From: Dehalococcoidia bacterium
GTDB lineage: Bacteria > Chloroflexota > Dehalococcoidia > Bin125
DNA length: 64,000 bases
Assembly (NCBI GenBank): GCA_965261225.1
Contig: OZ253456.1
Coordinates: forward strand, 1,190,099 to 1,254,098
Reading direction: 5' to 3'
The notes beneath the pieces are model-generated. The model worked only from the letters and a program-made list of their open reading frames with translations, was not told the DNA's origin and made no database searches. Positions within the stretch are counted from its first letter, which is position 1, and each line of letters opens with the position of its first letter. This document shows, piece by piece, positions 1-38,139 of the stretch. A program made the position numbers and the translations under genes.

Positions 1-1265
1 GCATTGTCGTCCAGACGGCCAAGTTTGCTTTCATTCGGGCGCCGGTCAAAGCCCCAGTATCCCTGCGTGTTCCTGTTGTTCCATCTACCAACGTTCATCG
101 TCGATTGCCAGATCGCGGTCGTGCCCATGCCGTATTCCGACCAGGAGCCGGCCCGGGTGTCGTCCTCCGAGCGGACCCTCACCTGATAGTTGACATCGGG
201 CTGCAGGCTCGCGATTGTCGTCGTCGTGTCCTGGACACCCTGTGGGCCGTCAGTCCAGGCGGTCTGATCGATAGTGCGGTATTGCAGGTCATATGCGGTG
301 ATCGTCGAAACGGATTCGGTGGGCGCCGTCCAACGCACGGTCAACGCGGTTTGGCCCGCGTCGAACACCGTCGGAGTCTCGGGCGCCGGGGGCGCGCCGC
401 TCTGCTCGTCAATGTCTATCAGCGTCACTGTGATGTCGGCCGAGGTGTTGTTGACGCCGTCGCTGACTTGCACGGTGATGTTGTATATACCACCCGCGCC
501 GTCGTCGTCGGGCGCTTCAAAGTCCTTCGCCTGCGTAAACATCAATGCGCCGCTCGAACTCAGAATGAAGTGGGACTGATCGGCGGCGCCGGTCAGCGCC
601 CAGATCAAGTCTGTAAAATCGGTGTCAGAATCGGTGGCGGAATCGGTGGCGGAACAATTGAACACGCCGACGATTCCCTCAGCAACTGTGAGGGCACTTG
701 CGGTGTTGATCTGCGGGACCGTGCTGTCTGGCACGGTTGAACTCTCCGGCGCGGTCGGTGTTTCCGGCTCGGAGTCCAGTTGCGTGACCAGATCGGTCAA
801 CGGAGCATTAGCCGGATCGGTTACGGGTACGGGGACCGGCTGGGTGACCGGCTGGGTGACAGGCTGGGTGACAGGCTCCGGCGCTGGAGTTTCGCTCACC
901 GTCCCCGTGGTCGTCGTGGACCAGGGTCCGCTCCACGGTCCGTTTCCCGGACCCCCGGTTTCGTATCGGGCGCGCATCCGGATCTTGATGGTCGCTGCCT
1001 CGGTCAGCCCGGTGAGTGTGATCGACGTCGTCACGCCCTCGGGATACTCATTCCCGCGGTCGGCTGCATTATCGGCTTTGAAGGATTGGTACTTGAGACT
1101 CTCTTCGGCCCAGCTAATCCGGTAGTCCGATGGCGCCGGTTCAGGCAAATCCCAGGCGATAGTGAGTTCACCCGGGTTCTCGCTACTGAGCCGAAGGTTT
1201 TCGATGGACCCAGGGGGCGTCGATCCCGTAGCCGGGGCGGCCAGGACGACGAGCATCGCCGTCAT
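1..1265 (-). CDS. Secreted/surface protein with fibronectin type III-like domains (partial; 3' end lies beyond window start)
   Basis: The reverse-strand reading frame is open from about 1334 down to position 1 and has no listed stop because it runs off the window. The translation begins MTAMLVVLAAPATGSTPPGSIENLRLSSENPGELTIAWDLPEPAPSDYRISWAEESLKYQSF... and shows FN3-like beta-sandwich periodicity and Pro/Thr-rich linkers (PVTQPVTQPVTQPV). The first ATG is at 1265 and overlaps the stop of a 99-aa upstream ORF as TGATG, so the exact start is uncertain. Confidence 0.55.
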   Translation of the reverse strand, partial: MTAMLVVLAAPATGSTPPGSIENLRLSSENPGELTIAWDLPEPAPSDYRISWAEESLKYQSFKADNAADRGNEYPEGVTTSITLTGLTEAATIKIRMRARYETGGPGNGPWSGPWSTTTTGTVSETPAPEPVTQPVTQPVTQPVPVPVTDPANAPLTDLVTQLDSEPETPTAPESSTVPDSTVPQINTASALTVAEGIVGVFNCSATDSATDSDTDFTDLIWALTGAADQSHFILSSSGALMFTQAKDFEAPDDDGAGGIYNITVQVSDGVNNTSADITVTLIDIDEQSGAPPAPETPTVFDAGQTALTVRWTAPTESVSTITAYDLQYRTIDQTAWTDGPQGVQDTTTTIASLQPDVNYQVRVRSEDDTRAGSWSEYGMGTTAIWQSTMNVGRWNNRNTQGYWGFDRRPNESKLGRLDDN

Positions 1266-1794
1266 CAGCGCAGTGATCGCGGCGAGGGCCAGAACGCGGA
1301 CCGGCCGAATCGAACGACCAGGTTGCCGTAGTGCCTACCTGTCGCGATGCCCCATAACTTCGACAAGGCGTGTGGGAGAAACCAAACTACGGCGAGTGCG
1401 ACAGCAACCAGTTTCATGGCGGCCCTGCTTCCAACCATGCCGAAGCCGCCATGCAATCGAAGATGTCGGCAATCGCCACCGAAACGGTGGAGATTGATTG
1501 CATAGCGACACGACGACAGACGACTTCGCCGCAAGCAGCGCGCTGCGCTTCGCGACCAAGCCAAACTTGGTGGGTGCTACGAGAACGCCGAATGCGCTCT
1601 CGCCAGCTGCTGACGCGCCCTCAACGGGCGGCGCCAGCGCCGTTCTCTCAATCAGTGCCGCGGCCAGCCACACGGCGAACTCCCAGTTCCGAATCGACCA
1701 GGTGTTATGCGCTGCCGACACTGACGCCGCTCCCTCTCTAGTTCTTGTGTCCTCGCTGAATGAAGCGTGGAACGAGTGTCCTCTCAGAGAATTC

Positions 1795-1900
1795 AACTCC
1801 GTCGTGGCATGTTATCTAATATGAATATGCAAGGCTGGTTATTATAACCGTTGTAAGTCAACTATGATGCGTGTTCAACATCATTAGGTTCCGTATGACA
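1795..1900. promoter_or_regulatory. AT-rich intergenic island with the palindrome GGTTAT-T-ATAACC (1837-1849); candidate promoter/operator for the FN3 surface-protein gene
   Basis: This is a local AT-rich stretch (ctaatatgaatatgcaaggctggttattataaccgttgtaagtcaactatgatg) in an otherwise GC-rich genome. It lies between the Crp-family gene's 3' end and the start of the minus-strand FN3 gene, and it contains a 6-bp-arm palindrome. Confidence 0.3.
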
Positions 1901-2217
1901 CCAGACGCAGATGGGCCGTGGCAGGCTTCGTCGATTGACTGGGCGTGGCCGGCGCAGGACTAGAGCGACGTGTGATTGCCCGAGCGCAAGCCGTCGTTGG
2001 AAGAACGGACCGATGACGACTGGGAAGAACTACGGAGCAAATCGCCGGCCGGATTGCGCATCGGACCAGACGCGAACTCCACGTCAACGACACTCAGCAT
2101 GTCTGCCATCAACCGGTTCCGGACGGTTTGGCTGAGCTCGGGTCAGAAAGCGGCCGGGGTTGCGGGCTAGATTCGTTCAGAATGGATGGGACTGTGAGTT
2201 GCCCGGCGGGTCCTGGA

Positions 2218-2979
2218 TCAATCCAGGTCGGTGTCCGCCAACAGCGGCCGAATCTCCCGCTCGCGCACATCCTGGAAGGCGTGCTCCTTGAGCAGGTCAA
2301 CGTCCGGCACCACCACTTCGCCCGCGAATCTTGCGCCGGGACCGTCGCCCCAGCGGATGACGCGCGCCTCCGAGAGTTCGGCGAGCCCCGCCGCCACTGC
2401 CGACCGTGACATGGTCGTCAGCCGTCCGATGTCCTTCTGGCGCACCGCAACCCGGCGTTCGGCGCCGAAGTCCAGGTCGTCGAGCGCTAACCGCGAAACT
2501 AGCGCCGCCGCCACTCGGGACGGTGGCGCGCCACTCGTCGCCAACGAGACCCAGTAGAAGCAGGCCAGACGCCGCATGACCAGCTCATGCATCCGTACTT
2601 GCACCGAAGGAATGCGATCGACTACCAGCTGCATCACGCTCTTGGGCATTCGGACGACGAAGGTCTCCGTGATTGCCGAGTAGCTCCCGACCCAGCGCTC
2701 GGCGTCCATCAAGAACTCATGCACGCCGATCAGAAACGGCGCGGTCAGCTCCGAGTACGGAGATTGCCAGGCAACCAATGTCCCCTGCTGCACGAAATAG
2801 AGATGCGAAAACGGGGAACCTGACTGAATGAAGGCCGACTCAACGGTGGCTTCCACATAGTCCAGCTCCAGCGTCTCCGGCGACTCTTCGAGGACGCCGT
2901 CCAACTCCTCGCTGGGGACCGACATGAAGTCGGGGCAGCGGACCAACCCCTTGGCAAATCCGGAGACCTGGACAGGCAT
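2218..2979 (-). CDS. Crp/Fnr-family transcriptional regulator (cNMP-binding domain plus C-terminal HTH)
   Basis: The 253-aa ORF has a central beta-roll-like region (FSHLYFVQQGTLVAW...ELTAPFLIGVHEFL) and a C-terminal helix-turn-helix (RQKDIGRLTTMSRSAVAAGLAELSEARVI) that matches the Crp-family DNA-binding helix pattern. The true start may be the internal MSVPSEEL at about 2925. Confidence 0.75.
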   Translation of the reverse strand: MPVQVSGFAKGLVRCPDFMSVPSEELDGVLEESPETLELDYVEATVESAFIQSGSPFSHLYFVQQGTLVAWQSPYSELTAPFLIGVHEFLMDAERWVGSYSAITETFVVRMPKSVMQLVVDRIPSVQVRMHELVMRRLACFYWVSLATSGAPPSRVAAALVSRLALDDLDFGAERRVAVRQKDIGRLTTMSRSAVAAGLAELSEARVIRWGDGPGARFAGEVVVPDVDLLKEHAFQDVREREIRPLLADTDLD

Positions 2980-3282
2980 GCGCGGCGATTTCTCTACGAT
3001 TTGCTCTGTACCCTAGTCCAGTCGGCAACCTGAGAACACAAACCATCGATCTGGCTGGTCGCTTACGGCCGGAGGACATCCTCGGATGCGCAAAGCACGA
3101 CCCGGGCAGGCAGCTGATCCGTGCCGGCGGCGGCTGCCAATCTGCGACAGCCAGGGGTTGTTCACATTGGCGGCTGTCCTCGTTGCCCCGTGTCAAGCAC
3201 GGGGAAACGGAATGCAGCGGTTTCGTACCTTGTGGTCGCTGTCTGAAACTAGAGATCACTGGTTGCAAGTGCTGGTACCGGA

Positions 3283-3297
3283 TGTGTGAACAGGCCC
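3283..3297 (+). promoter_or_regulatory. 15-nt motif TGTGTGAACAGGCCC; the same 15-mer recurs at 24982-24996 and, as an inverted 12-mer, at 24559-24570
   Basis: Three identical occurrences of such a long motif in intergenic DNA are unlikely by chance. This copy is about 300 bp upstream of the Crp-family gene start and immediately precedes the nested-repeat element. Confidence 0.3.
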
Positions 3298-3326
3298 AAG
3301 TTGAGACCGATGCAACACCTTTGATC

Positions 3327-3727
3327 TGCATCTCCCCCCTTGCGGAGACCAATGCATAACTCCCCTTCTCCCCCCATGCGGGGGAGATGCCGAAGGCAGA
3401 GGGGGGGGCTCCCTATCGCAATGCCTATCTGGTCGTCGCCGGCGCCCTCCCACTGTCACTCCGTGACATCTCCCCCCGCAGGGAGACCTTTGAATAAGTC
3501 ACGCATGGGGAATCTCCCAGTCCCCGCCTCCGCGCGGGGACCCGCTCCGCTTCGCCCTGCTCTCGCCTGTTCATCGCTCCTTACCAGATATGCAACCGAC
3601 CCTTCGTCGCTCAGCCGGCGAGGAACGGGGGCAGGTCCCCGCGCGGAGGCGGGGACTGAGAACCGCAAGTGCCGGACTAATTCAAAGGTCTCCGCAGGGG
3701 GGGAGAGAGGAACTGAGAGTTATGCAT
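3327..3727. repeat. Roughly 400-bp intergenic element of nested GC-rich inverted repeats (possible MITE or structured RNA)
   Basis: Three copies of a 20-nt motif are present: TCTCCCCCCTTGCGGAGACC at 3331-3350 and 3469-3488 (direct) and 3687-3706 (inverted). There is a perfect 22-bp inverted-repeat pair, GTCCCCGCCTCCGCGCGGGGAC, at 3520-3541 and 3635-3656, 93 bp apart. A perfect hairpin tctcccccc-atgc-gggggaga sits at 3367-3387. An outer pair atgcataactc / gagttatgcat lies at 3352-3362 and 3717-3727. The only ORF over this region (3340-3939+) is low-complexity. Confidence 0.6.
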
Positions 3728-3733
3728 CACTCT

Positions 3734-6700
3734 CTAGTTGGGGCTGGCGAAGACGCCGATGGCCAGTGGATTCCTGCCCGACACCGTTACCCAACCCCGG
3801 TTCTCTGGTGAGGACGTGTAGTGCCTGGATTTGGTCTGGTCGCCGATACTCCAACCAGCCGCTCCCGATGTGTCCTCGCTGTTCGAGTTGGACTCAGCGA
3901 CGCGGTAGAACGAGTTCGGGTGTTCGCTCAGCGACCTGAACACGATCCAGTACTTCGTGCTCGCCTCAAGCGTCACGCCCGCGCACGTCCCGGCGTACAT
4001 CTCGTCCGGCCAGTCTCCGGTCAACCGTATCAGCCCCGTCTCGTAGCCCGTGAGCCGTTCGAGCTGGCAGAGCTCAGTGCCGGGGCGGTTGGCGGTGGTG
4101 TTGCTGTAGATGGCGACCTGGGGCGCCGCGCGCGTCGGCACGAGCTGCACGGCGGTCACGAGAAGATCGGCACCCACGTAATGCGCGGGTTCATCGGCCA
4201 ATTCGGGGTTTTCGTCGTCGTCCACGCGCACCGCCACTTTGCCAATCACCTCGCTGTAGCCGCCGCCGTTAGCGGTGTGCACCAGCGTGACATCGTCGTC
4301 CGTGCTGTCGGTATCCTCCGCGCTGCTCACTGTCACCGTCTGCGCCTGGTCCCAGGTCGATGAGGTGAAGGTCAGCGAGGCCGGGGCCACGCTGACGTCC
4401 GTGTCCGCGGCGCCGGTGATGACCACCGTCACGTCGGCCGAGGGCCGCGTGCTCAGCTCGACGGTATAGTTCACGCTGAGCCCTTCGACTACCGTCAGCG
4501 TCCTGTCATCGACGACGATGCTGTAGGCCGGGGTCCCAATAGCAACGTTGGCGCCGACAACGCCGGTGATCGTGGCGGTACCCACCCGGGCGGAACGGCG
4601 GCCCATGCTGATGTAGGCCGCGAGCTTGTCCAGCGTGTAGCCCGCGGCATGCGAACCGGTGGTGAAGTCGATCGCCATCTCCTTGACGTGCCCGGTCAAG
4701 CCGTCTTCGGTCAGGTGGCCGACGTTGTAAAACTTAAGACTGTTGTTGGCCCGCTGTCGCAGGTTGCTCACCATGAGCCGCAGCTCCGGCAGTTTGCTGA
4801 GCGTGACCGTGTAGGGGCCGGTGTAGCGGTTCCTGTCTTCTTCGCGGTTCAAGTCGTTGTCCGACTCGACCTGCACGTACATGGTCGAGGTGCCCACCGC
4901 GACCGGCCAGAAGTCGAGCACGGCGTGGCCGTCGTAGTTGTTGTCCCACAGGTCGCCTCGGGCCACCGCCGGCCGGCCCATCGTCGACGAGAAGATATCG
5001 AGCGAACCACCAACCACGTTCGCGCCGAGGAAGTCCACCTCGAGGCGATACTGGCGGTAATGCTCCAGGCCATCGATCCTGAACCAGTCTCTGTCCGAGG
5101 CGTCATCCAGCGTGCCGATCGAGTACTCTCCGAGCCGGACCCGCCCCGGCGTCGCTTCGGAAGCCGGGAAGTCCTGTCCGAGCTGTTCGGCCTGTTCGGC
5201 CCGGCCGAGTGGCGCCACTCTACCTTTCAGGCCGAACTTGACTTCGCCGCCGAAGGACCAGCCGGGAAGGCTCCCCGTATCCATCTCCGTGGCAGTCGTT
5301 GGACGGAAGTACGTTCGCCTGTTAACTCCTTTGCGGTCGTAATCCTGATCACGAACCTGGAACTGGACCCAGTACTTGGTGGACGGGAACAGGAACACGT
5401 CCAGGTACTCAAAGGTGAAGTCATGGTCCTGAAGGAGTGCCCCCTACCCGGCCCAGCTCTGCCAGTTTCACTCCCGGACTGCCGCCCTTGTCCGTCCACA
5501 GGGACACGATGAGAAAGTCGTTCCCGTTGAAGGCCCTGAAACTGAAGCTGTTAACCAAGAACCCCGATCCACCCGGATCGGTTGTGAACGACTGCCGGAA
5601 TCGAACTTCAGCGGAGGTAAGGGTGTTGGCAGGCGTAATCTTCGCGTTCGGCTTGCCCAGGTTGCTGGCCAACGTCACGATCGGGTTGTCGTTGAACGAC
5701 AGGATCCGGTTCTCGTCAACCGCTTGCTGCTGCTCTGCGATCAGTGGTTCTTCGGGTTCCGGGGTCGGAAGGCTCGTCACCCGTGGCGCGGGCAGGGTGG
5801 TGACGTTGCCGGTCGACTGCGGCCCGGCGCCAGGCTGCGCGTGCCCGGGGTCGGGCCGGAACCGGACTTACCGGGCTTGGCCTCAGCGCTCGGCGACGGC
5901 GTCGGTGACGGCGTCGTGGTGCTCGCGGACACCGACGGCGCTCCCTCGCCGGCCGCGCTGAGCGCCACCACGGCGTAGACGTAGGTCGTCAAAGGACTCA
6001 CGCTGGCATCCACATAGCTCGTCGCCGTGCTGCCCGTGTCGGTCGCGATTACCGAGAGCGACACGGCGTCAGTCCCTCGCAGGATCCGGTAGCCGCTGAT
6101 CGCGCTGTGCGCCGGCGCCGTCCAGGACAGCGTCACGCTGCCGCCGGTGTGAACGTCAAGCGGGACCACTGTTCCCGACTCTCGTCCGACCACTCCGTCC
6201 CCGCGACGACGGCGCCGGAGGCGTCATGCACCGACTCGACGATCGGCGCCAGCAAGGTGCAGTCAACACCCGGCGTGCCCAACACCTGGATCCGGTAGGC
6301 GTGCCCGGCCGTCAAGTCCGCCGCGAACCAGTCCGTGTCCCACAGGGCGGTGCTTTCGGTCAGCCGCCCGCGGGCCGCCTGGTCGAGGGCAACCACCCCG
6401 GTCGTGTCGCCGGTCCCGGGTAGATCACCCGCGGCCGGCTCGGAGCGGCTCTGGCCGCTTCGCCCACTGCTCAACGGCACGGTGTCCGGCGTCGTCTCGG
6501 GTTCGGTCTCGGATGGCGTAATGGGATCGGTCACAGGTGGCGTCACCGGTTCGGTCGCAGGTTCGATCACCGGCGTCGTGACGGGCTGCGCCGTTGGCGC
6601 CGGCGTCGGCCTGGTCAGCGCCAGCACGAATCGGTCGCCCGCGCCGATCCTCGTCAGGATCGCGCGTCCCGTCGTCGGCACGTTGAAGTTCACGTAACCG

Positions 6701-7210
6701 CCGCCGACCGTCTCGACGTCGTTCGCCGCAAAGCTGGTCGTGCCGCTATCGGTCTGTACCCACACCGTCAGGTCGACGCCCGCTCCTGACACGCCGAAAT
6801 AGGCGCGCAGCACCAGGGGGCCGTGGTCATTCAGCCGCAGCAGAGACCCATTGCGGTTGGGGACCATCACCCGCACGATCTTCGAATCGGCGCTCAGGTT
6901 GACGTCGCCCTCAAGCAGCGAACCCGTCGCGCCCCAGCGCGAATCGGCTGCCGTATAGAGGGTCTTGGCCCCACCCGCCGTAAACGAGGCGAGCGCCACC
7001 GCCTGCAATCCGTTCTGGTCGAAATCGGCGACCCGTGAGCGAACTGATCTGAGCCTCCGCCAACCCGTTGCCGCTCAGCGATGCGACGGCGAGCCATCCG
7101 ATCAGGACCAGAGCCAGAATGCCGGCAAGCCGCACGAGGCGACGCCGCGGCCGCTTGGCGGCCGGAGACGCCTGGACGTATGTTGTCGTTGATCGCTCGA
7201 TCTGGCTCAT
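3734..7210 (-). pseudogene. Large secreted surface protein (signal anchor, FN3 domain, PT-rich linker, PPC-like and Ig-like/cadherin-like domains) split over at least 4 reading-frame segments
   Basis: The collinear minus-strand ORFs are 6911-7210 (N-terminal RPRRRLVRLAGILALVLIGWLAVA signal anchor), 6133-7008, 5777-6193 (FN3: VTLSWTAPAHSAISGYRILRG...TYVYAVVAL), 5421-5780 and 3734-5398 (PPC-like DWFRIDGLEHYRQYRLEV and SLTFTSSTWDQAQTVTVSS...DDDVTLVH repeat). They overlap by 4 to 98 nt in different frames. The same region in two frames (LVYGGWGQD versus AGGAKTLYTAADSRWG) indicates frameshifts rather than separate genes. Confidence 0.5.
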
Positions 7211-10622: not shown

Positions 10623-13600
10623 TCACTGAGCACCTGCAACGACAACCGCACTGCTGGCCAACCAGCGTCCGCTGGCCACGTGAGCTGGAAGGAAGCGAGA
10701 AGGCGGCAGCTGCAGGTCACCCCAGGCGCTGCCAGGTACACGAGCCTGTAATGCGAACTCCATCCTTCCATCTGACCGCGGACGAGCCGCGATTCGGATC
10801 TCGATGCTGACCTGGGCAGTCGTCAACGAGAGCGGCGAGCTCGCCAACCAAACGTCGACGACGGCATTCGTAGGCATGAACCGCGCTTCCGGACTCAGCG
10901 AGACGCCCCAGGAGCCATCTGGTGCGCGCTCCTGTAGCGCGAACTCGGTTCGGCCATCGGCCAAGCGACGAGCCACGATTCGCACTTCGTAGAGGGCCTC
11001 CGCGTTGACGGCCTGCGCGGCGACTGTCACTCGCACGCGAACCGGCGATGTCTCCAGTTCGCCGTCTGAGGCGGTGAGACTGAACGATGCTTCGCCTGCG
11101 GCAACCGGCGCGACAGTGACGACGCCGTTGGCCAGTTCAACCCTGATCTCGTCCGACGAGTCGGGCGCGACCAGCGAGTGTTCGAGTTGGTCGCCGTCGG
11201 GGTCGGAGAAGAACTGGGACAGCGTGAGGCGCGCTGACTCTGCATTGGCCGTCAGAGACAGCGCGGGTATTGCGTTCCCGACCGGCGGCTGATTGGGAAC
11301 TGTCTCGGGCAAGGTGACGCGGTACGTTCTCGCCCGGCTGCCATCCGCTGATGTTACGGTCGCCGCTACAGTGGCCGCCTCGCCGAGCGTGACTTGATGT
11401 CCGTTCTCTGCGTCGCCGTCCCACTTGACAGGTTCCACGGCGATCGTCGCCGACTCCTGAGTAGCTGTTGCCTCGACGATGCTTGAAGTGGCTTCGTCGG
11501 TGGCAGTTGCCTGGTAATCCAGTTTGCTCGGGGAGAACTCTCCGATGTCAATGTCGCTGAGCGAGAGTGAGGCGAGAGCAGCCTGGATGGCGTCGGGGAT
11601 GTTGTACGTGTTGACCCTGTCGTCCTCGGCGTCGACGACATACAGAACATCGCCGTTGGGCCAGATGCCGCGAGCATCGCCGTTCCCCGCTTTGATCAAG
11701 ACACGGAACCCGAATTCTTCTGCTTCGAGTCGTGCCAAGGTCTGATCTTCGATTCGGTAGGCGAAGATTCGGTTGGCGCCGTCATCTGAGACCCAGATGG
11801 ACACTCCATCCGACCAGATGCCGCGCGGGCTCTTGTTCAGGCTGTGGAGCGCATGCTCAGCGTCCAATTCCGCAGTCTCCAGGTTGTAGACGAACAATGC
11901 GTCTTTGACACTGTCAAGCACGTAGAGCGTTTCACCATCCGACCAGATGCCACGCGGATCGCGGTTGCGTTCAGCCAGTTCGATGTCGCGATCTTCCAGC
12001 CGTGATCCATCGGACAGTTCGTAGGCAAACAATGAGTCCCGACCGGCGTCGGCGATCCAGACGGTTTCTCCATCCGACCAGATGCCGTGCGAGAATCGGT
12101 TTCGCGAATCGAGCTCAACCTCGCGGGCTTCCTGGCGGTCCCCGGTCAGCAGGTCATAGGCGAACACTGAGTCGGATCCGATTGACGGGTTGTTGAGGAT
12201 CCAGAGCGTGGTTCGATCGGACCAGATGTCCGTCGGGTTGTCGTTGTCACGGTGCAGGTCGTCGATGTCCCGTGTGAGGTTGCAGTCAAAGTCCTCGTCA
12301 GAAGGCAAACGAACCGGAGCCGCGCCGCCTCCACCACCACCACCGCCACCGCCGCCGCCAGCCGTAGTAGTCCCGGAGCGACCAGTGCGGCCGGGACCGG
12401 CCACGAACTGGCCCGTGTATCGTGCCGCAGGTCCTTGAATGACGTTGATCGTCACCGTAGTCACGGCCTGCCTGTTGTCTCCGTCTGTTGCTGTGACCGT
12501 GAACGTGTGCGTGGGTTCCCGGGCAGCGTCTAGCGTGGCTGTCATAGAGACCCTGATCTGGCCGGTGTGCTGGTCGATTAAGAACTCACTGCAGATACTC
12601 CGGCTGTAGGTCAGCGCGTCGCCGTCGACATCCGTGGCCACAACCGGGACGCCGACTGGGTCGTTGTGACGAGCGCGTTCGGAGACTGTGCGAGTTGCAG
12701 TTTCCGATGCGAATACCGGCGGGTCGTTCCCAGGGGCAACGAGCACCTTGATGGTCCCTGTGTCTGAGAGTCCAACCTGATCGGTCAGCCGATAAGTGAA
12801 GTGGTCCTGACCGAAGAAGTTCGCCCTGGGCGTGTACGTCAAATGGGTCTGGACTGGCTGGTCCTGCTGGTCTGGCTGGTCTGGCTGGTCTGGTGCTGCG
12901 GTCACTTTCCCATTAGGCGGCTGTGTGAACGTTAGAGAAGGTGATTCGTTGTCGGGATCACCGCCCAGCGGTAGGTCGATTCGTAACTCTTCGTCCTCAT
13001 TCGTCGTTACCCATTGTTCAACCGCCACCGGCCGTTCATTGACATCCTCAACGTGAACTTCGAACTGCAGGCCTGTGCCCTCATGACGGTCGTCAACGGC
13101 GTTGACCGTGAAGTAGTGAACACCAATCAACTCGTGGTCCAGCATTGCACCCTGGGCGATCCGGACCTGGCGCGAGCGCGAATCGATGACAAATTCTGCA
13201 TTGTCGCTGACCGTGTAATAAACGGAGTCGCCGTCGCTGTCGGTGGCCTCGGGTACCGTGGTGACGACAGTACCCGCCGGGGCGTCCTCGCGAATCATAA
13301 TCTCGATCTTGGTATTGTCGGCGCATGGTATCTCGGCATTGAAGACCGGTGCGGTGTTTGGGTCGGAGCCCTTCGCACCGACACGGGTCGGCGAAACTGC
13401 CTGAAGTGTCTCCGCGCCGTGCCGATCCGTGTACGTCACAGTGACGCGGAGGAACTGATTCACGTCCTCGATCAACGGGGTGATTCTGGAACCGTTGTTG
13501 CTCAGTGCGACGCTGCCCAGCGCGGGCGTCCAGGGTCCGCCCGAATTAGTGGCCAGTTCCCAGGACCATTCGGCGCTTCCGATGATCATATCGGGCTCGT

Positions 13601-13754
13601 TCAATTCAGCCCGGTACATAGCACCTACGCGCGGCCGCCAGGGAGCAAGAGTCAGCGTTCCCGGCTCTGCCACATCAGTCAGGGTGACGATCAGGCTACG
13701 CTCAACGGGCCTATTCCTTTCTCGTGGTGGGCTGCCGTCAGAAACCTGGACCAT
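10623..13754 (-). CDS. Giant adhesin-like protein, C-terminal segment: cadherin repeats, (Gly)11 linker, 5-bladed beta-propeller (GIWSDG blades), cadherin-like beta-sandwich domain, C-terminal RIAAR/GRWLASS repeats
   Basis: The 1043-aa ORF carries cadherin-type repeats (VYYTVSDNAEFVIDSRSRQVRIA...VNERPV), a GGGGGGGGGGG run, five blades of about 45 aa each (PRGIWSDGETLYVLDSVKDALFVYNL...), the pattern LSLSDIDIGEFSPSKLDYQAT...TYRVTL, and about 45-aa repeats at the end (IRIAARPRSDGRMEFALQARVPGSAWG...GRWLASS). Its start overlaps the stop of 13754-15664 as TGATG. Confidence 0.65.
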   Translation of the reverse strand: MVQVSDGSPPRERNRPVERSLIVTLTDVAEPGTLTLAPWRPRVGAMYRAELNEPDMIIGSAEWSWELATNSGGPWTPALGSVALSNNGSRITPLIEDVNQFLRVTVTYTDRHGAETLQAVSPTRVGAKGSDPNTAPVFNAEIPCADNTKIEIMIREDAPAGTVVTTVPEATDSDGDSVYYTVSDNAEFVIDSRSRQVRIAQGAMLDHELIGVHYFTVNAVDDRHEGTGLQFEVHVEDVNERPVAVEQWVTTNEDEELRIDLPLGGDPDNESPSLTFTQPPNGKVTAAPDQPDQPDQQDQPVQTHLTYTPRANFFGQDHFTYRLTDQVGLSDTGTIKVLVAPGNDPPVFASETATRTVSERARHNDPVGVPVVATDVDGDALTYSRSICSEFLIDQHTGQIRVSMTATLDAAREPTHTFTVTATDGDNRQAVTTVTINVIQGPAARYTGQFVAGPGRTGRSGTTTAGGGGGGGGGGGGAAPVRLPSDEDFDCNLTRDIDDLHRDNDNPTDIWSDRTTLWILNNPSIGSDSVFAYDLLTGDRQEAREVELDSRNRFSHGIWSDGETVWIADAGRDSLFAYELSDGSRLEDRDIELAERNRDPRGIWSDGETLYVLDSVKDALFVYNLETAELDAEHALHSLNKSPRGIWSDGVSIWVSDDGANRIFAYRIEDQTLARLEAEEFGFRVLIKAGNGDARGIWPNGDVLYVVDAEDDRVNTYNIPDAIQAALASLSLSDIDIGEFSPSKLDYQATATDEATSSIVEATATQESATIAVEPVKWDGDAENGHQVTLGEAATVAATVTSADGSRARTYRVTLPETVPNQPPVGNAIPALSLTANAESARLTLSQFFSDPDGDQLEHSLVAPDSSDEIRVELANGVVTVAPVAAGEASFSLTASDGELETSPVRVRVTVAAQAVNAEALYEVRIVARRLADGRTEFALQERAPDGSWGVSLSPEARFMPTNAVVDVWLASSPLSLTTAQVSIEIRIAARPRSDGRMEFALQARVPGSAWGDLQLPPSRFLPAHVASGRWLASSAVVVAGAQ

Positions 13755-15664
13755 CAGATTTCGGCTCGTGTCCTCTTCAAAACATTCAGCGGACGTTCAG
13801 CAAACAGGTCCGCTCGCTGCTCGGCCCCTGAAGACCTCGCTCGCGGACGAAGCGCGAAGCCATTGATCTCATGTGTGCTTAGTGTCCAGATGAGATCAGA
13901 ACCGAGATCGTCAGTGACGACTAACCTGCCTACCAGCCCCGTCCAATTCTCGTCGATCGTCCAGGCTGGCGGATGTGTCATGGCTGGCGGCTGTGTCATG
14001 ACGGGTGTCTCGTTGACATCGGTCACTACGAATCCGATCGGTCGACTGACCGTATGCGTACTGTCCGACGCCTGCAGCGTGACGACGTACGTGTTGTCGC
14101 GGTTGGCATCCCCTGGATTCTCGTAGTTATGCCCATACAGCTTGACTAGCGCTCCCGTCTTCACGTTCATCGGGTCTGGCGTGAACTCGAAACTGTCCGC
14201 ATCGGCTCCGGCGAGAGACCAGGTGATGGTCCCCGACTCGGGATCGGTGGCGTCATAGTCGCCGACTGCCGTACTGGTCGCGGATTCGTCCTCATCGACA
14301 ATGACGAGCACCGGCCCCGTGATCAGCGGCGGCTCGTTAACATTGGTCACGTTGATCGTTACTGCCAGGGTCGTGGTCTTGTTTGCGTCGTCCACGGCTT
14401 TGATTGTGACCCGATGCTCATCCTGTTTCTCGTAATCCACGCCGATCCGGAACGCCAGCACGCCACTTCGGCTTAGCGTGAACTTGCCCGAGTCCCTGCC
14501 CTCCAGGGACAGCGTCACATTCATCCGTCGCTCGGGGTCGTAGGCGGCATACTGAGCAGGTGCGTCATCGCGATCTTCGGCGTAGTCCACTTCCGTGGGT
14601 CCAATGATCACCGGAGGTTCATCGACATCAATGACTTTAATGATGAATGTAATTTCGTTGTCTGTGGTGCTTGAGCTGGCGCCTCCAGAATCAAGTCCAT
14701 CGCTGACAGCCAGACCTACTGTGTACTGGCTGCTGTTCTCATAATCGATCTCGCCGTTCGTGCCAACGGTAATCCTGGCGCTGTTGCCAGCAATGACCAG
14801 CGTGAGACCAGCTTCATCCACATACTGGTCAGGGTAATAGAAGAAATCGAACGGATCCGCGTCCGGATCCGTGGCGCTCACTGTGGCTACGGTTGTTCCG
14901 GGTAGCGTGCCTTCACGAACGCTAAACACGCTCGGTCGTTGCGTGAAATATGCGTTCCGGCTGCTGATCGTCGTACGGACCGCGTCGGTGGGCGGGGATG
15001 CTATGATCTTTCCAGATCCGCTGCCGTCGCTATAGGTGGCAACTGCTCGCAGGTACTGCCCCACGTCGGAATCGGGATCGCCATCGATCTGAACAGGCGT
15101 GTAGCGCGCCGACTGAGCCCCGCTAATCGGCGTGAAGCCAGAGTACTTGTTCGTGGATCGTTCCCACTGCCAAGTCACGTCACGGACGTTGCCGTCGGCA
15201 TCAGTGAGCGAAGCGGACAGGCTGCTGCCGATCACTGGAGTATTGGTCGACAGGCGGACGATGCCGTCTTCCTCGTTGTTCGAAATTGTGAACGTCAGGT
15301 CAACCGAATCGTCGATGCTTGGGTCGAACGATCCAGAGGCGTCGAGATTGTCGGTGACATGAACGGTGACGGAGTACGACCTTCTCGTTTCGTGATCGAT
15401 CTGCGTGTTGTCGCGGACCAGGATATCTCCGCTACGTGAGATGAGCGTGAACGCCCTCGAGAATACGGCCGCATCTCGACCCGTCACGCTGTAGTCGAGA
15501 GTGTCGCCGTCGGAATTGTCTGCGGCCAGGGTCAGGATCAGCTCACCGTTTCGATGTGGCACTTTGTTGATTGAGCGTTCGACTTCGGCATCGGAGAACG
15601 ATGGGTCGGTGTTTAGCTCCGCGGTGCGGATGGCGAGGCGGATGACTGCAGGAGACCCGGTCAC
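13754..15664 (-). CDS. Giant adhesin-like protein, middle segment (cadherin repeats); frame differs from the flanking segments
   Basis: The 636-aa ORF shows cadherin repeat signatures (VDEPPVI, VNEPPLITGP, YDATDPESGTITWSL). It is collinear with 15984-17612 upstream and 10623-13754 downstream but in another frame. Confidence 0.6.
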   Translation of the reverse strand: MTGSPAVIRLAIRTAELNTDPSFSDAEVERSINKVPHRNGELILTLAADNSDGDTLDYSVTGRDAAVFSRAFTLISRSGDILVRDNTQIDHETRRSYSVTVHVTDNLDASGSFDPSIDDSVDLTFTISNNEEDGIVRLSTNTPVIGSSLSASLTDADGNVRDVTWQWERSTNKYSGFTPISGAQSARYTPVQIDGDPDSDVGQYLRAVATYSDGSGSGKIIASPPTDAVRTTISSRNAYFTQRPSVFSVREGTLPGTTVATVSATDPDADPFDFFYYPDQYVDEAGLTLVIAGNSARITVGTNGEIDYENSSQYTVGLAVSDGLDSGGASSSTTDNEITFIIKVIDVDEPPVIIGPTEVDYAEDRDDAPAQYAAYDPERRMNVTLSLEGRDSGKFTLSRSGVLAFRIGVDYEKQDEHRVTIKAVDDANKTTTLAVTINVTNVNEPPLITGPVLVIVDEDESATSTAVGDYDATDPESGTITWSLAGADADSFEFTPDPMNVKTGALVKLYGHNYENPGDANRDNTYVVTLQASDSTHTVSRPIGFVVTDVNETPVMTQPPAMTHPPAWTIDENWTGLVGRLVVTDDLGSDLIWTLSTHEINGFALRPRARSSGAEQRADLFAERPLNVLKRTRAEI

Positions 15665-17612: not shown

Positions 17613-17769
17613 GTGTCAATGTTGGAGGATCGGATGTCGTGTCCATAGACTGACTGAGACATAGCATCGAGAAGACATTAGACATGTTCTGCCACGGTCA
17701 TATGAATGCTCTATCGAATGGCTTGCCCCACGTCGAAACGAGGACTCCGAGCGAACCCTGCAGAGCTAG

Positions 17770-18891
17770 GAACGCTCTGAACAAGTCTGCGTTCTGAGGC
17801 CTGGTTAGGATCGAGGCAGCGACCGCTGAAGAGAGCGCCTTGATGCAGGAACCGACGTTTGTCAGCCTGGAGTTCACGCACAAGAAGCGCAAGGCCCGGC
17901 GTGAGCGGTTCATGGAAGGGAGCGACGCGCTGGTTCCGTGGGGCACGCTGGCGGCGCGCGTCGAGCCGGTCTATCCCCAGCCGGGGCGCGGACGGCGACC
18001 GTACCCGCTGGCCGTGATGCTGCGCATCCATTGCGTGCAGCTCTGTCACAACCTCAACGACCCGGCGATGGAGGACTTGCTCTACGAGGCCGAGTCGGCG
18101 CCCGCTTCTGCGGGCTGAACCTGAGTGGGCCGATCCCGAACGAGTCGACGATCCTGCACTTCCGCCGCCTGTTGGAGCGGCATCAGCTGGGCGAGGCGCT
18201 GTTGGAGACGATCAACGCGCACCTGGAAGGCCGGGGACTGCGGCTGCAGCCCGGCACGATCGTGGACGCGAGCATCATTGCGGCGCCGTCCTCAACCAAG
18301 AACCAGCATCGCCAGCGCGACCCGGAAATGCACTAGACCAGGAAGGGCAACGAGTGGCGCCTTCGGGATGAAGTTGCATATCGGCGTGGACGCGGCGCTG
18401 GGCCTGACCCAGAGCCTGAGCACGACGGCAGCGAACAGCGCCGACGCGCCAAGGCTTGACGGCGTGGCGGGTCGCGATGCGTCCCGGACGCCGCCGCATG
18501 CGGCGCCCGACAGTCCGCTGGCCTAGCGCGAGCGCGAGCGGGCTTCGCTGCGGGCCAAGGCCGAGCACCCGTTCCTCTTCATCAAACGACGCTTCGGCTA
18601 CGACAAAAACCTGCCCCCGCGAAAGCGGGGGTGCGCTACCGCGGCCTGGCCAAGAATCATCAGCGGCTGGCGTTGCTCCTGGGCTTCACCAATCTGCTGA
18701 TCGCTGAGCCACGGCTCGCCTCAACCCCGGCGCACTGCGCCCCCGGCCCGGCTCGGCCCCAACCATCGGGCCAACCGGACCCTCGGCATCGCCCCACCCC
18801 ATCGTCCCCCACGCCAGTTCAACTCTGTGACGCCACAGCCCACGCCGAATCAGGACCAAATCCGATCGAGAACCCCCTGTTCAGAGCGTTC
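17770..18891. mobile_element. IS5-family insertion sequence (about 1.12 kb), degenerate
   Basis: The terminal inverted repeats are GAACGCTCTGAACAAG (17770-17785) and CCTGTTCAGAGCGTTC (18876-18891). The flanking tetranucleotides are CTAG and CTGG (an imperfect 4-bp target duplication of the CTAG type). The internal ORFs encode an IS5/InsH-like transposase. Confidence 0.75.
17840..18720 (+). pseudogene. IS5-family (InsH-like) transposase, fragmented over three or more frames
   Basis: Frame 1 gives FVSLEFTHKKRKARRERFMEGSDALVPW...RPYPLAVMLRIHCVQLCHNLNDPAMEDLLYE. Frame 2 gives ESTILHFRRLLERHQLGEALLETINAHLEGRGLRLQPGTIVDASIIAAPSSTKNQHRQRDPEMH. Frame 3 gives GMKLHIGVDAALGL...TTAANSAD. The C-terminal frame gives KAEHPFLFIKRRFGYDK...VRYRGLAKNHQRLALLLGFTNLLIAE. 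The DDE middle part is incomplete, and a hairpin (cccccgcgaaagcggggg) is inserted between GYDK and VRYRGLAKN. Confidence 0.75.
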
Positions 18892-20671
18892 CTGGGTCTG
18901 GGCGCTCATGCGACTGGTCGTCGCTGGATGCTGCGCGCTGGTCGTTCGGGACGCGTACGAATCGCTCCTCGATGAGGTGATCCAACACCAGCCTGGCATT
19001 GCCGCGTGCGGACTGTTGGACAGTGTCAAGCGAAATCTCCGGGTGTTGCGGAGCTTCATACGGATCATCGATCCCGGTGAAGTTGGAGATCTCACCGCGG
19101 CGCGCCCTGGCGTACATGCCCTTGGGGTCGCGCTCCTCGCAGACATGGAGCGGCGTGTCGACGAACACCTCGATAAAGCGCTCGGATCCGACCATGGTCC
19201 GTACCTCATTTCGCACAGCGCTGTAGGGGCTCACGGCCGCGCAGATTGCGACTCCGCCATGACGGACGATTTCCGAGGCGACGAATCCAATCCGGCGAAT
19301 GTTGGCGTCGCGGTCGTCTTTGGAGAAGCCCAGACCTTTGGATAGATGCGTTCTGACGACGTCTCCGTCGAGCACCGTCACCCGCCGCCCGTGCTCCATG
19401 AGCAGTCCCGTGAGCAGCTCGGCGGTTGTGGACTTGCCTGAACCGCTGAGACCGGTGAACCAGACGCACACCCCCTGGCGATGCTTCGGCGGATTGTGCT
19501 CAGCCACGATCCTGGCGACCTCGGGTAAGGCCATCCAGCTCGGCAGCGTTCGCCCCTGGCGCGAGTTCTCCTCACCCATCTGCGGCGGATTGGGCATGGC
19601 TCCACCCGCGCGTACGGGACGAACGGCGACCTCAGTGCGCGTCTCGCCGCCGGTGTCGTCCACCGTCCAGCGAACGGTCACAGCTCTCACTCCGCTCTCA
19701 TCGCGGTACCGGTCGACGAGTTCATGGGCGTCGTCTGGGCTGTGGATCGTGGCGCCCAAGGAGTCGTCGGGGGGACTGGCGTAGTCGCGGCCGACGATCA
19801 GATGGTTGGCGCCGTAGTTGCGTCGGATGATCGCGTGCCAGAGCGCCTCTCTCGGTCCGGCAAACCTCGTCGCCAACGGCAGCAGCGATAACAGCACCCG
19901 ATCGCTCTCGTAATAGTGGAGCGACAGCGTCCGGTACGTGCGGATGCGCGCGTAATGGTCCACCTCCCCGGTATTGGTCAACCCCGCTGCCGGATGAAGC
20001 AGCAGCACCCCGTCCAGACTCTCAGCGGCCCGCCGAGTGAGTTCCTCTTCGGCCCGGCGAAACGGATCGCAGGCATGGAAGGCCACGACGTTGCCTCGGC
20101 CGTAGGCGGAGAGCTCGGCCCGGGTCTCGCGCGGTGTTCGCCTCAGTTCGGTGAAGTCATAGTGTCGTGGAAGCTGCAACACCTGGAGCGGGCCGGATAC
20201 GTTCACCTTCCCCCAGCGCTGCATCTCGGACACGAGTGGATGCCGCGCGTCGCGAGTGCCGAGTACTTGATCCGCGAGCTCCAGCGGGTTCCACTCGTAC
20301 GCCTCCTGAATCGTCATGACCGCGAGCAGATCGTTTCGGGCATCGCGCAGGGCCACGTCAGTATCGAGTTTGACGGCAGAAGCGTCTTCGATGGACAGGG
20401 TTACTGGAACAGGAAACAGCATGCCGTCGGCCAGCCGCATATCGGCGACCGATCGACGGTAGTCGTCCTCGCCCATGAACCGGTCAAGAGGCGAGAACGC
20501 CCCCGTCGCAAGAAGCTCGAGATCGCAGGTCGCGCGTTCGGACAGCTGAATGCTGTCCAATCGTCCGGCGCGGTCCTTGAGATCGGCGAATCGCTCCTGC
20601 GGAGCCACGAGGTCGATCAGCTCGCCGCCGTAGGGCGCGATCAGGCCGGTCTGTTCGATCGAGGACGCCAT
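18881..20671 (-). CDS. sat/cysC: Fusion of an ATP-sulfurylase-like domain (N-terminal, catalytic motifs degenerate) and adenylylsulfate (APS) kinase (C-terminal)
   Basis: The 596-aa ORF's N-terminal half aligns with ATP sulfurylase (VVAF..., LSLLPLATRFAGPREALWHAIIRRNYGANHLIVGRDYA), but QTRN is replaced by HACD, HRAH by RRAE and GRDHAG by GRDYAS. The C-terminal half is canonical APS kinase (VWFTGLSGSGKSTTA, DGDVVRTHLSKGLGFSKDDRDANIRR, ISNFTGIDDPYEAP). The last three codons and the stop lie inside the IS5 right inverted repeat. Confidence 0.85.
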   Translation of the reverse strand: MASSIEQTGLIAPYGGELIDLVAPQERFADLKDRAGRLDSIQLSERATCDLELLATGAFSPLDRFMGEDDYRRSVADMRLADGMLFPVPVTLSIEDASAVKLDTDVALRDARNDLLAVMTIQEAYEWNPLELADQVLGTRDARHPLVSEMQRWGKVNVSGPLQVLQLPRHYDFTELRRTPRETRAELSAYGRGNVVAFHACDPFRRAEEELTRRAAESLDGVLLLHPAAGLTNTGEVDHYARIRTYRTLSLHYYESDRVLLSLLPLATRFAGPREALWHAIIRRNYGANHLIVGRDYASPPDDSLGATIHSPDDAHELVDRYRDESGVRAVTVRWTVDDTGGETRTEVAVRPVRAGGAMPNPPQMGEENSRQGRTLPSWMALPEVARIVAEHNPPKHRQGVCVWFTGLSGSGKSTTAELLTGLLMEHGRRVTVLDGDVVRTHLSKGLGFSKDDRDANIRRIGFVASEIVRHGGVAICAAVSPYSAVRNEVRTMVGSERFIEVFVDTPLHVCEERDPKGMYARARRGEISNFTGIDDPYEAPQHPEISLDTVQQSARGNARLVLDHLIEERFVRVPNDQRAASSDDQSHERPDPGTL

Positions 20672-24558: not shown

Positions 24559-24995
24559 GGCCTGTTCACATAGAACGCTCGCGACGGCCAACCCCAAACC
24601 AAGCCCTGCGCCGCAGCTCCGTCCCTGCCGAGCCACGCTACCATCAGAACGCATGAGCGCTTGAAAGACGGAGCCAATGTCAACCCCACACCCAACCACA
24701 ACCCGGTACGCCCCCGACCACCCGCCAACCCCCGCTCACCGCGTGATAACCCAGCGAACCGTTTCGTCCCAATCCGCACAGATCCGAACAAATCCGAACA
24801 GCAACCGACCAGAAATCCCTCAACCAGACTGAAAAAACCTGAAAAAACCTGAAAGAGCTGAAACACGATCTCCAGCAATGCACGGGAGATCGCCCCCGAA
24901 CCACCCCAGAAAAAAAGTCCCACCTGAAACCTGAAACCGCCAATGACCACAACACACGCCTCGACCGAACCCATCCCCGGCTGTGTGAACAGGCC
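24559..24995. repeat. Intergenic segment bounded by the inverted 12-mers GGCCTGTTCACA and TGTGAACAGGCC, with internal A-rich direct repeats (CTGAAAAAAC x2, CTGAAA x4, ATCCGAACA x2)
   Basis: The bounding inverted repeat is at 24559-24570 and 24984-24995. CTGAAAAAACCTGAAAAAACCTGAAAGAGCTGAAACAC lies at 24829-24866 and CCTGAAACCTGAAACC at 24922-24937. The region ends 36 bp upstream of the GMC oxidoreductase ATG, which has a strong GAGGAGG Shine-Dalgarno sequence. Confidence 0.4.
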
Positions 24996-30948: not shown

Positions 30949-31028
30949 TGGAATAGTGTTCCGAACATACTATCCGATACGCCGGACCAGATGCTGAAAC
31001 AGACCTCACACACCACGCGTCATGCTGT

Positions 31029-31400
31029 TTAGGGTTGTCGAGTCACAACTCGGCCAGCTACAGGAGTGGATTCCCGCATCAGCGGGAGTAATAGACTTGG
31101 CGGGCTATTCGGCTTGTCAGCAGCCCGTTGGTCCGGCGGGATAAGGTCTGTTCCCAAGGATGTGAACGGGTTGATCACCGTGACGCCGCCATACTCCTGG
31201 CCAGCGTTCAAGTCCTCGGAGTAGACCGCGTCGCAATACGAAATCTGGTAGCGCTGGCTAATCACTGTGGCCGAGCGGAACAGCTCGATCGTCAGCGCCT
31301 GCACATGTCGCTTCGATAGTTCCTCAACAAACAGGATCGCAGCGTCGTGCGACAGTCTACCTGGTCGGCTCGGTCGGGTGACGTGGTAATAGAACTCTTG
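31029..31400 (-). CDS. Possible PIN-domain (VapC-like) protein
   Basis: The segment LLDSVDIVLSVQVLQEFYYHV...ISYCDAVY...GGVTVINPF loosely fits PIN-domain spacing. The listed ORF (to 31586) overlaps the higB remnant on the opposite strand, so the extent and even the reality of this gene are uncertain. Confidence 0.3.
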   Translation of the reverse strand, partial: QEFYYHVTRPSRPGRLSHDAAILFVEELSKRHVQALTIELFRSATVISQRYQISYCDAVYSEDLNAGQEYGGVTVINPFTSLGTDLIPPDQRAADKPNSPPSLLLPLMRESTPVAGRVVTRQP

Positions 31401-31511
31401 CAGAACCTGGACAGATAGGACGATGTCGACTGAGTCCAACAGACCGTCGGCGGCGCTGCCGGAGTGGTGCATAGCGCTTTGCCAGACGCCAAATGGAGGT
31501 ACGCTCGGCGA

Positions 31512-31791
31512 ATGATCCTGCGCATTCGGCACCGCGGAATGCGGCATTTCCACCGTCGCGGCGACCCAAGCGGATTGACTCCGCACGAGATCCCAGGAAT
31601 TCGCCGTATCGTGACAGCACTCGAAGTAGCGTCCGGACCAGGGGGACTCGGACGCGCCTACCTACCGATTGCATCCACTGAAAGGAAGCATGTCAGGATT
31701 GTGGACCGTTGACGCTTCCGCGAATCGCCGCATGATCTATCGCTTCGGAGAGAGAGACGTCACGGACGTTGACCTGCTCGACTACCACTGA
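31512..31791 (+). pseudogene. higB: higB-like toxin gene (copy 1) with a 1-nt insertion frameshift
   Basis: The N-terminal frame gives MILRIRHRGMRHFHRRGDPSGLTPHEIPGIRRIVTALEVASGP. The +1 frame gives LHPLKGSMSGLWTVDASANRRMIYRFGERDVTDVDLLDYH*. Both halves align with the intact copy at 32098-32376. The junction (around 31655-31668) carries 28 nt where the paralog has 27. Confidence 0.6.
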
Positions 31792-31802
31792 GGGAGAGTC
31801 CG

Positions 31803-32093: not shown

Positions 32094-32097
32094 GCCT

Positions 32098-32376: not shown

Positions 32377-32397
32377 GACGGCGAATGGAGACTAGCA

Positions 32398-32688: not shown

Positions 32689-32790
32689 CCACTGGGTCAG
32701 ATTGCAGACCGCCTACGACCTCGTCCAATCCGCAAGACAGCCTGCGACTTCAAGCGGATCAAGCGCGTAGCCTGACCATTCCGACACTGC

Positions 32791-36902: not shown

Positions 36903-37020
36903 CCAACGACACCAACTTCGACATCAATAGACACTTTACTCCCGGCTCTCTAGCTCTCTCCCTTGTCAGTCGAGAGTTGACTTCAGTCGCAATCGTGGGG
37001 CATTTGGTGCAGAGGAACTA

Positions 37021-38035: not shown

Positions 38036-38139
38036 TGGGGAGTATCCCGTTCCGGGCGGGGCGACCGCCCCACCCAGACACCCCGTGTATCGGGACTTCT
38101 CCGATTGCTGGCCGGGGCCTGCGATGACGCATGATCGGG

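Follow-up and report, generated by a model that had tools for sequence, protein, structure and literature searches.

The question raised by this locus is what could have packed so many symmetric, GC-rich repeats into a single short stretch between two genes. The locus lies in a window of 64,000 nucleotides from a Dehalococcoidia bacterium (contig OZ253456.1, positions 1,190,099 to 1,254,098), downstream of an open reading frame (ORF) for an fn3-like adhesin and upstream of a Crp-family gene. The repeated DNA spans ~3302-3735 of the window, slightly more than the 3327-3727 at first marked out. A first-pass annotation had offered three kinds of explanation: a mobile repeat, either a miniature transposable element with inverted repeats (MITE) or one resembling repetitive extragenic palindromes (REPs); a structured non-coding RNA; or a cluster of protein-binding sites. 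The analysis described here indicates that 3302-3735 very probably consists of three MITEs nested one within another, here called R0, R1 and R2 from the outside inward; the nest is ordinary mobile DNA, unusual only in that it arises by self-insertion of a family into its own hairpin loops.

Nested architecture and the empty site

The repeats that had drawn attention to the locus are real, and none of them is expected by chance. The 20-nt motif TCTCCCCCCNNNNGGAGACC does occur in three copies, at 3331-3350 (+), 3469-3488 (+) and 3687-3706 (-), and the hairpin at 3367-3387, whose perfect 8-bp stem (3367-3374 / 3380-3387) was recovered as annotated, is related to it. The perfect 22-mer pair GTCCCCGCCTCCGCGCGGGGAC stands at 3520-3541 (+) and 3635-3656 (-) with a spacing of 93 nt; two matches to it were obtained in 0 of 100 shuffles, and each copy of the 22-mer also forms an 8-bp stem of its own. 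The outer 11-nt inverted repeat (ATGCATAACTC at 3352-3362, GAGTTATGCAT at 3717-3727) and the TGTGTGAACAGGCCC motif at 3283-3297 were found as well. Folding of 3320-3740 gives -232 kcal/mol for the + strand (z ~-11 versus dinucleotide shuffles) and -249 kcal/mol for the - strand (z ~-10). Self-BLAST finds no second copy of the nest elements elsewhere in the 64-kb window, and none of the ORFs overlapping the nest region has a Pfam match. The repeats resolve into parts of the nested elements (Table 1): the 20-mers are junctions of hairpin arm, loop and transposon tip, the 22-mers are internal arms of R2, and the outer 11-nt repeat forms the subterminal stretch within the termini of R1 and of the outer element.

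Table 1. Features of the nest and of the rest of the window, in window coordinates.
Feature	Position	Strand	Description
R0, left end	3302-3343	+	degenerate terminal repeat TGAGACCGATGCAACACC; arm CATCTCCCCCC (3329-3339); loop TTGC (3340-3343) holding R1
R1 MITE	3344-3481	+	positions 1-141 of the 178-bp consensus; terminal repeat GGAGACCAATGCATAACTC
Target-site duplication GCAG, left copy	3478-3481		duplication made by R2
R2 MITE	3482-3693	+	212 bp; nearly perfect long palindrome; termini GGAGACCTTTGAATAAGTC / GACTAATTCAAAGGTCTCC
Target-site duplication GCAG, right copy	3694-3697		
R1 right-hairpin right arm, then hybrid R1/R0 right end	3698-3735	+	arm GGGGGGGAGAG; right end GAGTTATGCATCACTCTCT
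Crp-like gene	2218-2979	-	253 aa; weak HTH_Crp_2 match
Short element adjoining the nest	3154-3296		ends GGGGTTGTTCACA (3154-3166) and TGTGAACAGGCC (3285-3296); contains hairpin 3181-3209
fn3-like/adhesin ORF	3734-5398	-	554 aa
Decayed IS5-family insertion sequence	17769-18892	+	1124 bp; terminal repeats GGAACGCTCTGAACAAGTC, akin to the MITE termini
Copy of the second repeat family	24559-24995		437 bp
Large serine recombinase	29305-30948		
Type ISP restriction-modification enzyme	33756-36902		
Tyrosine integrase	42513-43646		

All three elements are small and without coding capacity (~75-80, 178 and 212 bp for R0, R1 and R2), and they share the terminus form GGAGACCTTTGAAyAAsTC, which is degenerate in R0. 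The R0 unit (GAGACCGATGCAAAACTCAC...CTCTCCCCCCC TTGC/, where the slash, here and below, marks the point of insertion) borders many R1 and R2 copies at other loci; its left part is conserved in 10 of 10 related strains, and a complete mini-element of 73 bp is found at 3005-3077 of the sampled locus L082. R1 is made up of the left hairpin at 3367-3387, a central core, a GTCAC-TCC-GTGAC hairpin, and a right hairpin with left arm CATCTCCCCCC at 3467-3477 and loop GCAG at 3478-3481; it is 87% identical to the R1 that related strains carry at the orthologous locus. R2 has perfect 14-nt terminal inverted repeats and arms that are 81-87% complementary across 37-39 nt, and it folds to -127 kcal/mol (z = -9); an 8-nt direct repeat, CCGCAGGG, stands at 3476-3483 and again at 3692-3699. 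At the right end the nest lacks ~40 nt that six related strains have, among them the right terminus belonging to R1 itself and the arm of the outer hairpin.

The empty site that the first-pass annotation had suggested looking for in related genomes was found. Ten orthologous loci were retrieved with the Crp protein of a sister cluster and aligned to the window (alignment A1), and the central 216 bp (3482-3697), and with them R2, are absent from all ten. The Type-1 strains (L015, L017, L020 and L024) have the undisturbed single-loop hairpin CATCTCCCCCC-GCAA-GGGGGGGAGAG (+ strand), and the window has the same hairpin with its loop split, CATCTCCCCCC-GCAG/GGAGACC...GGTCTCC/GCAG-GGGGGGGAGAG. The six Type-2 strains keep ...GAGTGTTTCGAAGGTCTCC GCGA GGGGGGAGATGGGTAGTGATCCATCACTCTCTAG, of which the window and the Type-1 strains have a shorter form. 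To the right of R2, the window and the L015 ortholog are 97.5% identical, and R2 is therefore read as a clean gain, the repeat as a whole not having been replaced. That R2 came by gene conversion out of a different R1::R2 composite was considered and rejected, as this right flank is orthologous and the window R1 is no nearer to L035 (a composite described below) than to the orthologous R1. R1 and the outer element are kept in all 11 alleles. The chromosome OZ253471.1 also carries the orthologous locus (L019), there without R2.

Copies and insertion targets beyond the window

The 19-mer terminus GGAGACCTTTGAATNAGTC was scanned across one genome per GTDB species, which yielded 75 loci in total: 39 loci (42 matches) in OZ253471.1, a 3.6-Mb Dehalococcoidia chromosome; 27 loci (28 matches) in the Dehalococcoidia metagenome-assembled genome (MAG) CAXXUV01; 2 loci in one Chloroflexota MAG; and 7 remaining loci that are scattered, unrelated singletons of chance-like character. 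The terminus is thus present in dozens of copies in Dehalococcoidia genomes, nearly all of whose matches extend as GGAGACCTTTGAATAAGTCCCCTTCGCCCCCCTTGCGGGGGAGATGCCGAAGGCAGAGGG, the equivalent of window 3344-3410. The sampled loci, scattered 8-kb blocks of related genomes, contain 119 repeat clusters and 60 near-full copies of R1; an alignment of 60 copies gives a consensus of 178 bp with 13-19-nt terminal repeats and two C-run/G-run hairpins, to which the near-full copies have a median identity of 96.6% and whose long-hairpin fold has z = -11.6. A further 51 R1 copies match only the first ~140-160 positions and stop in or close to the right-hairpin loop. For R2, identities of 98-100% were obtained with L035 7355-7566, L086 7402-7613 and L028 1-105 in OZ253471.1, where the flanks of its copies are unrelated to the window locus; the complete copies, at L035 and L086, each lie inside the right-hairpin loop of an R1 and have TTGC duplicated around them. 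The sampled DNA also contains more diverged R2 relatives. Literature searches found no prior description of the MITE family.

In the Chloroflexota MAG JAJDUU01 (L052 ~7175; L070 ~2690-2879) there is another MITE, of ~190 bp, whose interior is unrelated and whose 19-nt terminus is identical; the copy at L070 is flanked as CCTTCCCCC-TGGAA/.../TTGAA-GGGGGAAGG. Because of this MITE, the terminus and the hairpin-loop target are seen to be conserved outside the two Dehalococcoidia genomes. Scans of viral contigs gave no match to the 22-mer, and the candidates that they returned for the 20-mer pattern, 13 chance-like loci and one unrelated repeat, were set aside. The IMG/VR contig UViG_3300048598_000549 (L004 7430-7490; L007 1985-2210) has at least three copies of a repeat of its own with the hairpin GGTCTCCCCCCGTGAGGAGACC, which bears a superficial likeness to the 20-mer and is otherwise unrelated.

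The target of the family was characterized from 61 pairs of termini, spaced 165-225 bp apart, that have GGAGACCTTTGAA / TTCAAAGGTCTCC at both ends. The 4-nt flanks are identical in 26 of the 61 pairs, with at least ten different flank sequences, namely TTGC, GCAA, GCGA, TCGC, TCTG, CAGA, ACAA, CCAA, CGGA and GCAG; exactly reverse-complementary flanks occur in only about 3. The flanks almost always follow the pattern C-run NNNN / element / NNNN G-run, and at least four C's plus 3-5 nt precede 134 of 187 tips (72%), versus 1.1% of background positions. Since the arms stay the same and only the bases that are duplicated differ, it is the arms, or the hairpin that they can form, that define the target. 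Filled and empty loops are also found in a host MITE of ~110 bp, which has termini GGAATGCTCTGAACAACTC and flanks CTA/.../TAG: its hairpin is empty at L048, L087 and L079 and holds R1 in the loop at L053, L047 and L081.

IS5-type relatives and a possible mechanism

A search with the terminus of the host MITE located in the window a decayed insertion sequence (IS) of the IS5 family that opens at 17769 and whose inverted copy of the terminus closes it at 18878-18892. Its 23-nt inverted repeat is 91% complementary; DUF772 is split by a frameshift over two frames, the reading frames contain an in-frame stop, and the match to DDE_Tnp_1 is weak, a portion of the DDE domain being apparently missing. 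With a repaired 207-aa sequence from this IS as query, intact transposases of 315 aa (DUF772 + DDE_Tnp_1) were found at 83-86% identity. Two of them are on OZ253471.1; these intact transposases, P0022 and P0025, are encoded both there and on contigs of the window's own sample. Intact IS copies of 1191 bp, flanked as CTA/GGAAAG...CTTTCC/TAG, occupy at least eight different sites in sister strains. When the resident IS is read as CTAG/GAAAGCTCTGAACAAGTC, its terminus has 18 nt to GTC, as does E. coli IS5 (GGAAGGTGCGAACAAGTC), and 14 of the 18 are identical in a manual alignment. Of the inner 11 nt of the R1 terminus (GAATAAGTCCC, block GAAyAAGTCCC), 10 agree with E. coli IS5 in its right inverted repeat, and over the terminus as a whole 13 of 22 positions do, figures that are suggestive only, IS5 having been picked after the resemblance was noticed.

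A full-length partner was sought among several kinds of candidate. Terminus pairs 2.6-3.7 kb apart were rejected as full-length ISs; between them lie housekeeping genes, for a solute-binding protein, for prephenate dehydratase, Fpg and an S41 peptidase, and for glutamine synthetases. Of the multi-copy ORFs in the sampled loci, none looked like a transposase; the single relative compared with Pfam is a solute-binding protein (SBP_bac_5), and the sizes of the ORFs suggest ABC-transporter paralogues. A metagenome scan with the terminus plus a non-C base, a pattern intended to enrich for non-R1 elements or an autonomous IS, gave chance matches only. GGAGACC tips were found in none of six further IS5-type transposase homologues, whose readable termini are CTAG-flanked and of GGAAxGCTCTGAAC type; L120 and L127 among them have no clear terminal repeat.

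The decayed IS of the window lies directly downstream of a sat/cysC-like gene (18881-20671, - strand), overlapping the end of the gene by ~12 nt. No empty site for this remnant was obtained, and L125 carries the remnant too. In one sister genome, at L126 4277-4723, a fragment of a DDE_3 (IS630-type) transposase occupies the exact point downstream of sat/cysC (cf. window ~18895), which suggests an insertion hot spot there. L114 and L117, from two strains, carry the same IS5-type copy (~2617 onward) with identical left flanks, at a thyX-like gene; because their right flanks differ, rearrangement or deletion adjacent to the IS is indicated.

The elements are thus multi-copy, bounded by terminal repeats and duplications, precisely absent from an empty site in related strains, and preferentially placed in hairpin loops, and relatives of IS5 are present in the same genomes. 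In the history proposed for the nest, the ~80-bp mini-element R0 would have inserted first and the 178-bp R1 would then have entered the hairpin loop of R0; later, in the window lineage, R2 would have entered the tetraloop of the R1 right hairpin, duplicating GCAG. An IS5-type DDE transposase acting in trans would bind the terminal repeats and integrate the element by a short staggered cut, with the centre of a C5-6 / N4 / G5-6 palindrome as the favoured target. Because each R1 carries two target palindromes, the family would insert into itself, and dense nested symmetry would follow. The enzyme that moves R1 and R2 may be an IS5-type transposase, judging from the termini, and recognition of the target could depend either on the duplex sequence or on a hairpin extruded from it. 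A more specific proposal is possible though doubtful: the mover of R1 and R2 would be a DDE transposase of IS5 type that has changed its target from Py-T-A-Pu to the middle of a C6-N4-G6 palindrome, which it might recognise in extruded form, as a hairpin or cruciform; as each element carries this preferred target, the family would seed itself and build nested arrays. To our knowledge, structure-directed, self-targeting amplification of MITEs has not been described for the IS5 family.

Alternative explanations, neighbouring features and known systems

Two of the alternatives concern the history of the repeats. R2 could be ancestral at this site and not recently mobile, having been deleted in ten strains between the 8-bp repeats CCGCAGGG, and in fact R2 is bordered by an 8-nt direct repeat, a possible substrate for slipped-strand deletion, and long palindromes are prone to deletion. 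However, deletion would be needed in both other allele types (or in their ancestor) and would have to leave a perfect canonical hairpin in each; in addition, R2 copies of 98-100% identity occupy other R1 loops with different duplications (TTGC, GCAA), and R1 in the 110-bp host MITE shows the matching pattern of filled and empty sites. A single gain of R2 is more parsimonious than its loss from ten strains, and ancestral presence is regarded as highly unlikely. The mobile repeat of the first-pass annotation stands as a MITE, on the strength of its terminal inverted repeats, duplications, empty site and dozens of copies, and falls as a REP. REPs, or the bacterial interspersed mosaic elements (BIMEs) built from them, would be mobilised by a REP-associated tyrosine transposase (RAYT, of Y1/HUH type), the hairpins being REPs in a mosaic produced by single-strand transposition. 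The hairpins are indeed short GC-rich palindromes in alternating orientation, in intergenic clusters often beside ABC-transporter genes, and the modular, strain-variable architecture is BIME-like; but terminal inverted repeats of 13-19 nt with variable direct-repeat flanks are not products of Y1 transposition, the palindromes lack the GTAG or CGTC head that is conserved in REPs of 20-40 nt (cf. PMC3733652), what varies among strains is a unit of 212 bp with its 4-bp duplication and not a hairpin or hairpin pair, and the termini resemble IS5 inverted repeats. Nor do the elements fit the IS200/IS605 type (subterminal hairpins, no terminal inverted repeats, no duplication, a fixed target oligonucleotide on one side), terminal repeats and variable direct repeats being found on both sides. 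An origin through RAYT is accordingly very improbable.

The other alternatives concern function. The nest could act as an RNA, as a read-through barrier, an mRNA-stabilising 3' structure of the adhesin transcript or an insulator before the Crp gene, which would be compatible with a transposon origin but is on balance unlikely. It does start right after the adhesin stop codon, its transcribed (-) strand folds to -249 kcal/mol, and 11 of 11 alleles have kept R1 together with the outer element; there is also one weak terminator-like hairpin at 3706-3689, though its 5-bp stem and CCTTTGAATT tail are no more than shuffles give. Against this, both strands fold equally well, as expected for DNA palindromes, the fold being that of a long inverted repeat on either strand; and R2 is missing in 10 of the 11 alleles and the right end is rearranged among strains, so that the nest is not conserved as a unit. 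Rfam returns only sub-threshold matches in 2900-4000 (MIR918 with 39 bits versus a gathering threshold of 268, whalefall-1 with 18.9 versus 37) and neither a gathering-level match nor a tRNA in the whole window, which leaves the proposed structured non-coding RNA without a family; the likeness of the long hairpin to a plant miRNA precursor was dismissed as one of shape alone. That the repeats are clustered sites to which the adjacent Crp-family regulator, or some other DNA-binding protein, binds is scarcely credible. The nest does lie upstream of the Crp-family gene, with TGTGAACA / TGTTCACA motifs at 3285 and 3159, but these motifs are not arranged as a TGTGA-N6-TCACA palindrome and are the tips of repeats whose family is dispersed over many loci unrelated to this one, while the GC-rich repeats themselves are transposon termini and hairpins at ~70 loci. 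The TGTGTGAACAGGCCC motif, earlier thought to mark a promoter, is likewise the terminal motif of a different repeat family, and no sigma-70-like promoter was found in 2900-3900.

Several points count against the reading of the nest as three MITEs moved by an IS5-type enzyme. The sampled loci were selected for having the terminus, so that the proportions reported above are biased and indicative only, and insertion and deletion of R2 were told apart by parsimony only (10 strains versus 1). A perfect duplication is missing in 35 of the 61 pairs, some of which are recombinants or join ends that do not belong together. How long the duplication is depends on where the tips are placed, as these carry on the symmetry of the C-run and G-run; its register is ambiguous by one nucleotide on each side. 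With GG...CC as the tips the length is 4 nt, with G...C it is 6 nt, and a few copies fit 3 or 5. The resident IS agrees with the R1 terminus at ~13-14 of 18-19 positions (manual alignment) and targets CTAG, not hairpin loops, and cross-mobilisation is unproven. The genome scan turned up no autonomous element whose termini are exactly GGAGACC, and the 19-mer matches in the two Dehalococcoidia genomes all lie in MITE-sized repeats, with no transposase found nearby.

The second repeat family has the tips GGCCTGTTCACA...TGTGAACAGGCC; its 12-mer, with up to 1 mismatch allowed, has 37 matches across 834 kb of related DNA, and CTAG or TTAG often comes next. The short element at 3154-3296, next to the nest, is tentatively assigned to this family. 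The 5-nt loop of its hairpin (12-bp stem) is inverted among strains, CTTGA versus TCAAG (A1 columns ~620-635), which constitutes a loop-flip polymorphism. IS5-type elements and MITEs repeatedly occur directly beside second-family tips (e.g. L121, L064 and L090). On the other side of the nest, the adhesin stop codon overlaps the hybrid R1/R0 right end, the TAG (3734-3736, - strand) straddling the outer-repeat junction. The fn3/adhesin gene is whole in relatives (1303-1481 aa; L015-L024, about 1000-5460) and is broken in the window into four ORFs (288, 130, 119 and 554 aa) over 3734-7008; the original C-terminus of the adhesin may have been replaced by the insertion. Farther along the window, 29305-44000, which includes the recombinase, the restriction-modification enzyme and the integrase of Table 1, is probably a genomic island; around it lie very large genes for cadherin/fn3 surface proteins (10623-15664, 38140-42327 and 45368-53500).

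Recognition of the nest as mobile DNA guards against its annotation as a riboregulator or an operator cluster, and it brings to light a MITE family of uncultured soil-type Dehalococcoidia that had not been described before and is apparently active. The presence or absence of its members among near-identical strains makes them possible strain markers, and the family is a likely source of assembly breaks in short-read metagenomes. Given its position, the nest may affect read-through or expression of the neighbouring adhesin and Crp-family genes. The preference of the family for its own loops, set against the CTAG target of the related resident IS, offers a natural case for the study of target choice by DDE transposases.

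Among known systems, the IS5 family appears similar in the pattern of its termini, GG/GA...TGAAyAAGTC, and is similar in its short flanking duplications, 4 nt in the most economical reading, and IS5-type transposases (315 aa) appear to be active in the same genomes. IS5 targets the tetranucleotide Py-T-A-Pu (PMC5493358), which fits the CTAG/CTAA sites of the resident IS and the 110-bp host MITE. R1 and R2, in contrast, make no use of Py-T-A-Pu, their duplicated 4 nt varying and the C-run/G-run remaining constant, and their terminus is one nt longer than the 18 nt to GTC of IS5 and the resident elements. Five IS families (IS1397, ISKpn1, ISPsy8, ISRm22 and ISPpu9/10) hit REP palindromes, either at the axis of symmetry, as ISRm22 does exactly, or at some fixed point, and are flanked by short direct repeats (PMC1525189). 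Unlike in those cases, the inserter here is a non-coding MITE and the palindrome is carried by its own family, which results in self-nesting. BIMEs and the BOX, ERIC, Correia and RUP repeats resemble the nest in consisting of modular hairpin units that are intergenic, variable among strains and often located between the genes of an operon; the modules described here differ in being bounded by terminal repeats and duplications, and they represent successive insertions and not the pairing of REPs. In plant genomes MITEs are often found within other MITEs, usually at TA or TAA targets; those are eukaryotic families, whereas here the loop of a specific hairpin is preferred. The distinctive point is that this MITE family carries its own preferred palindromic target.

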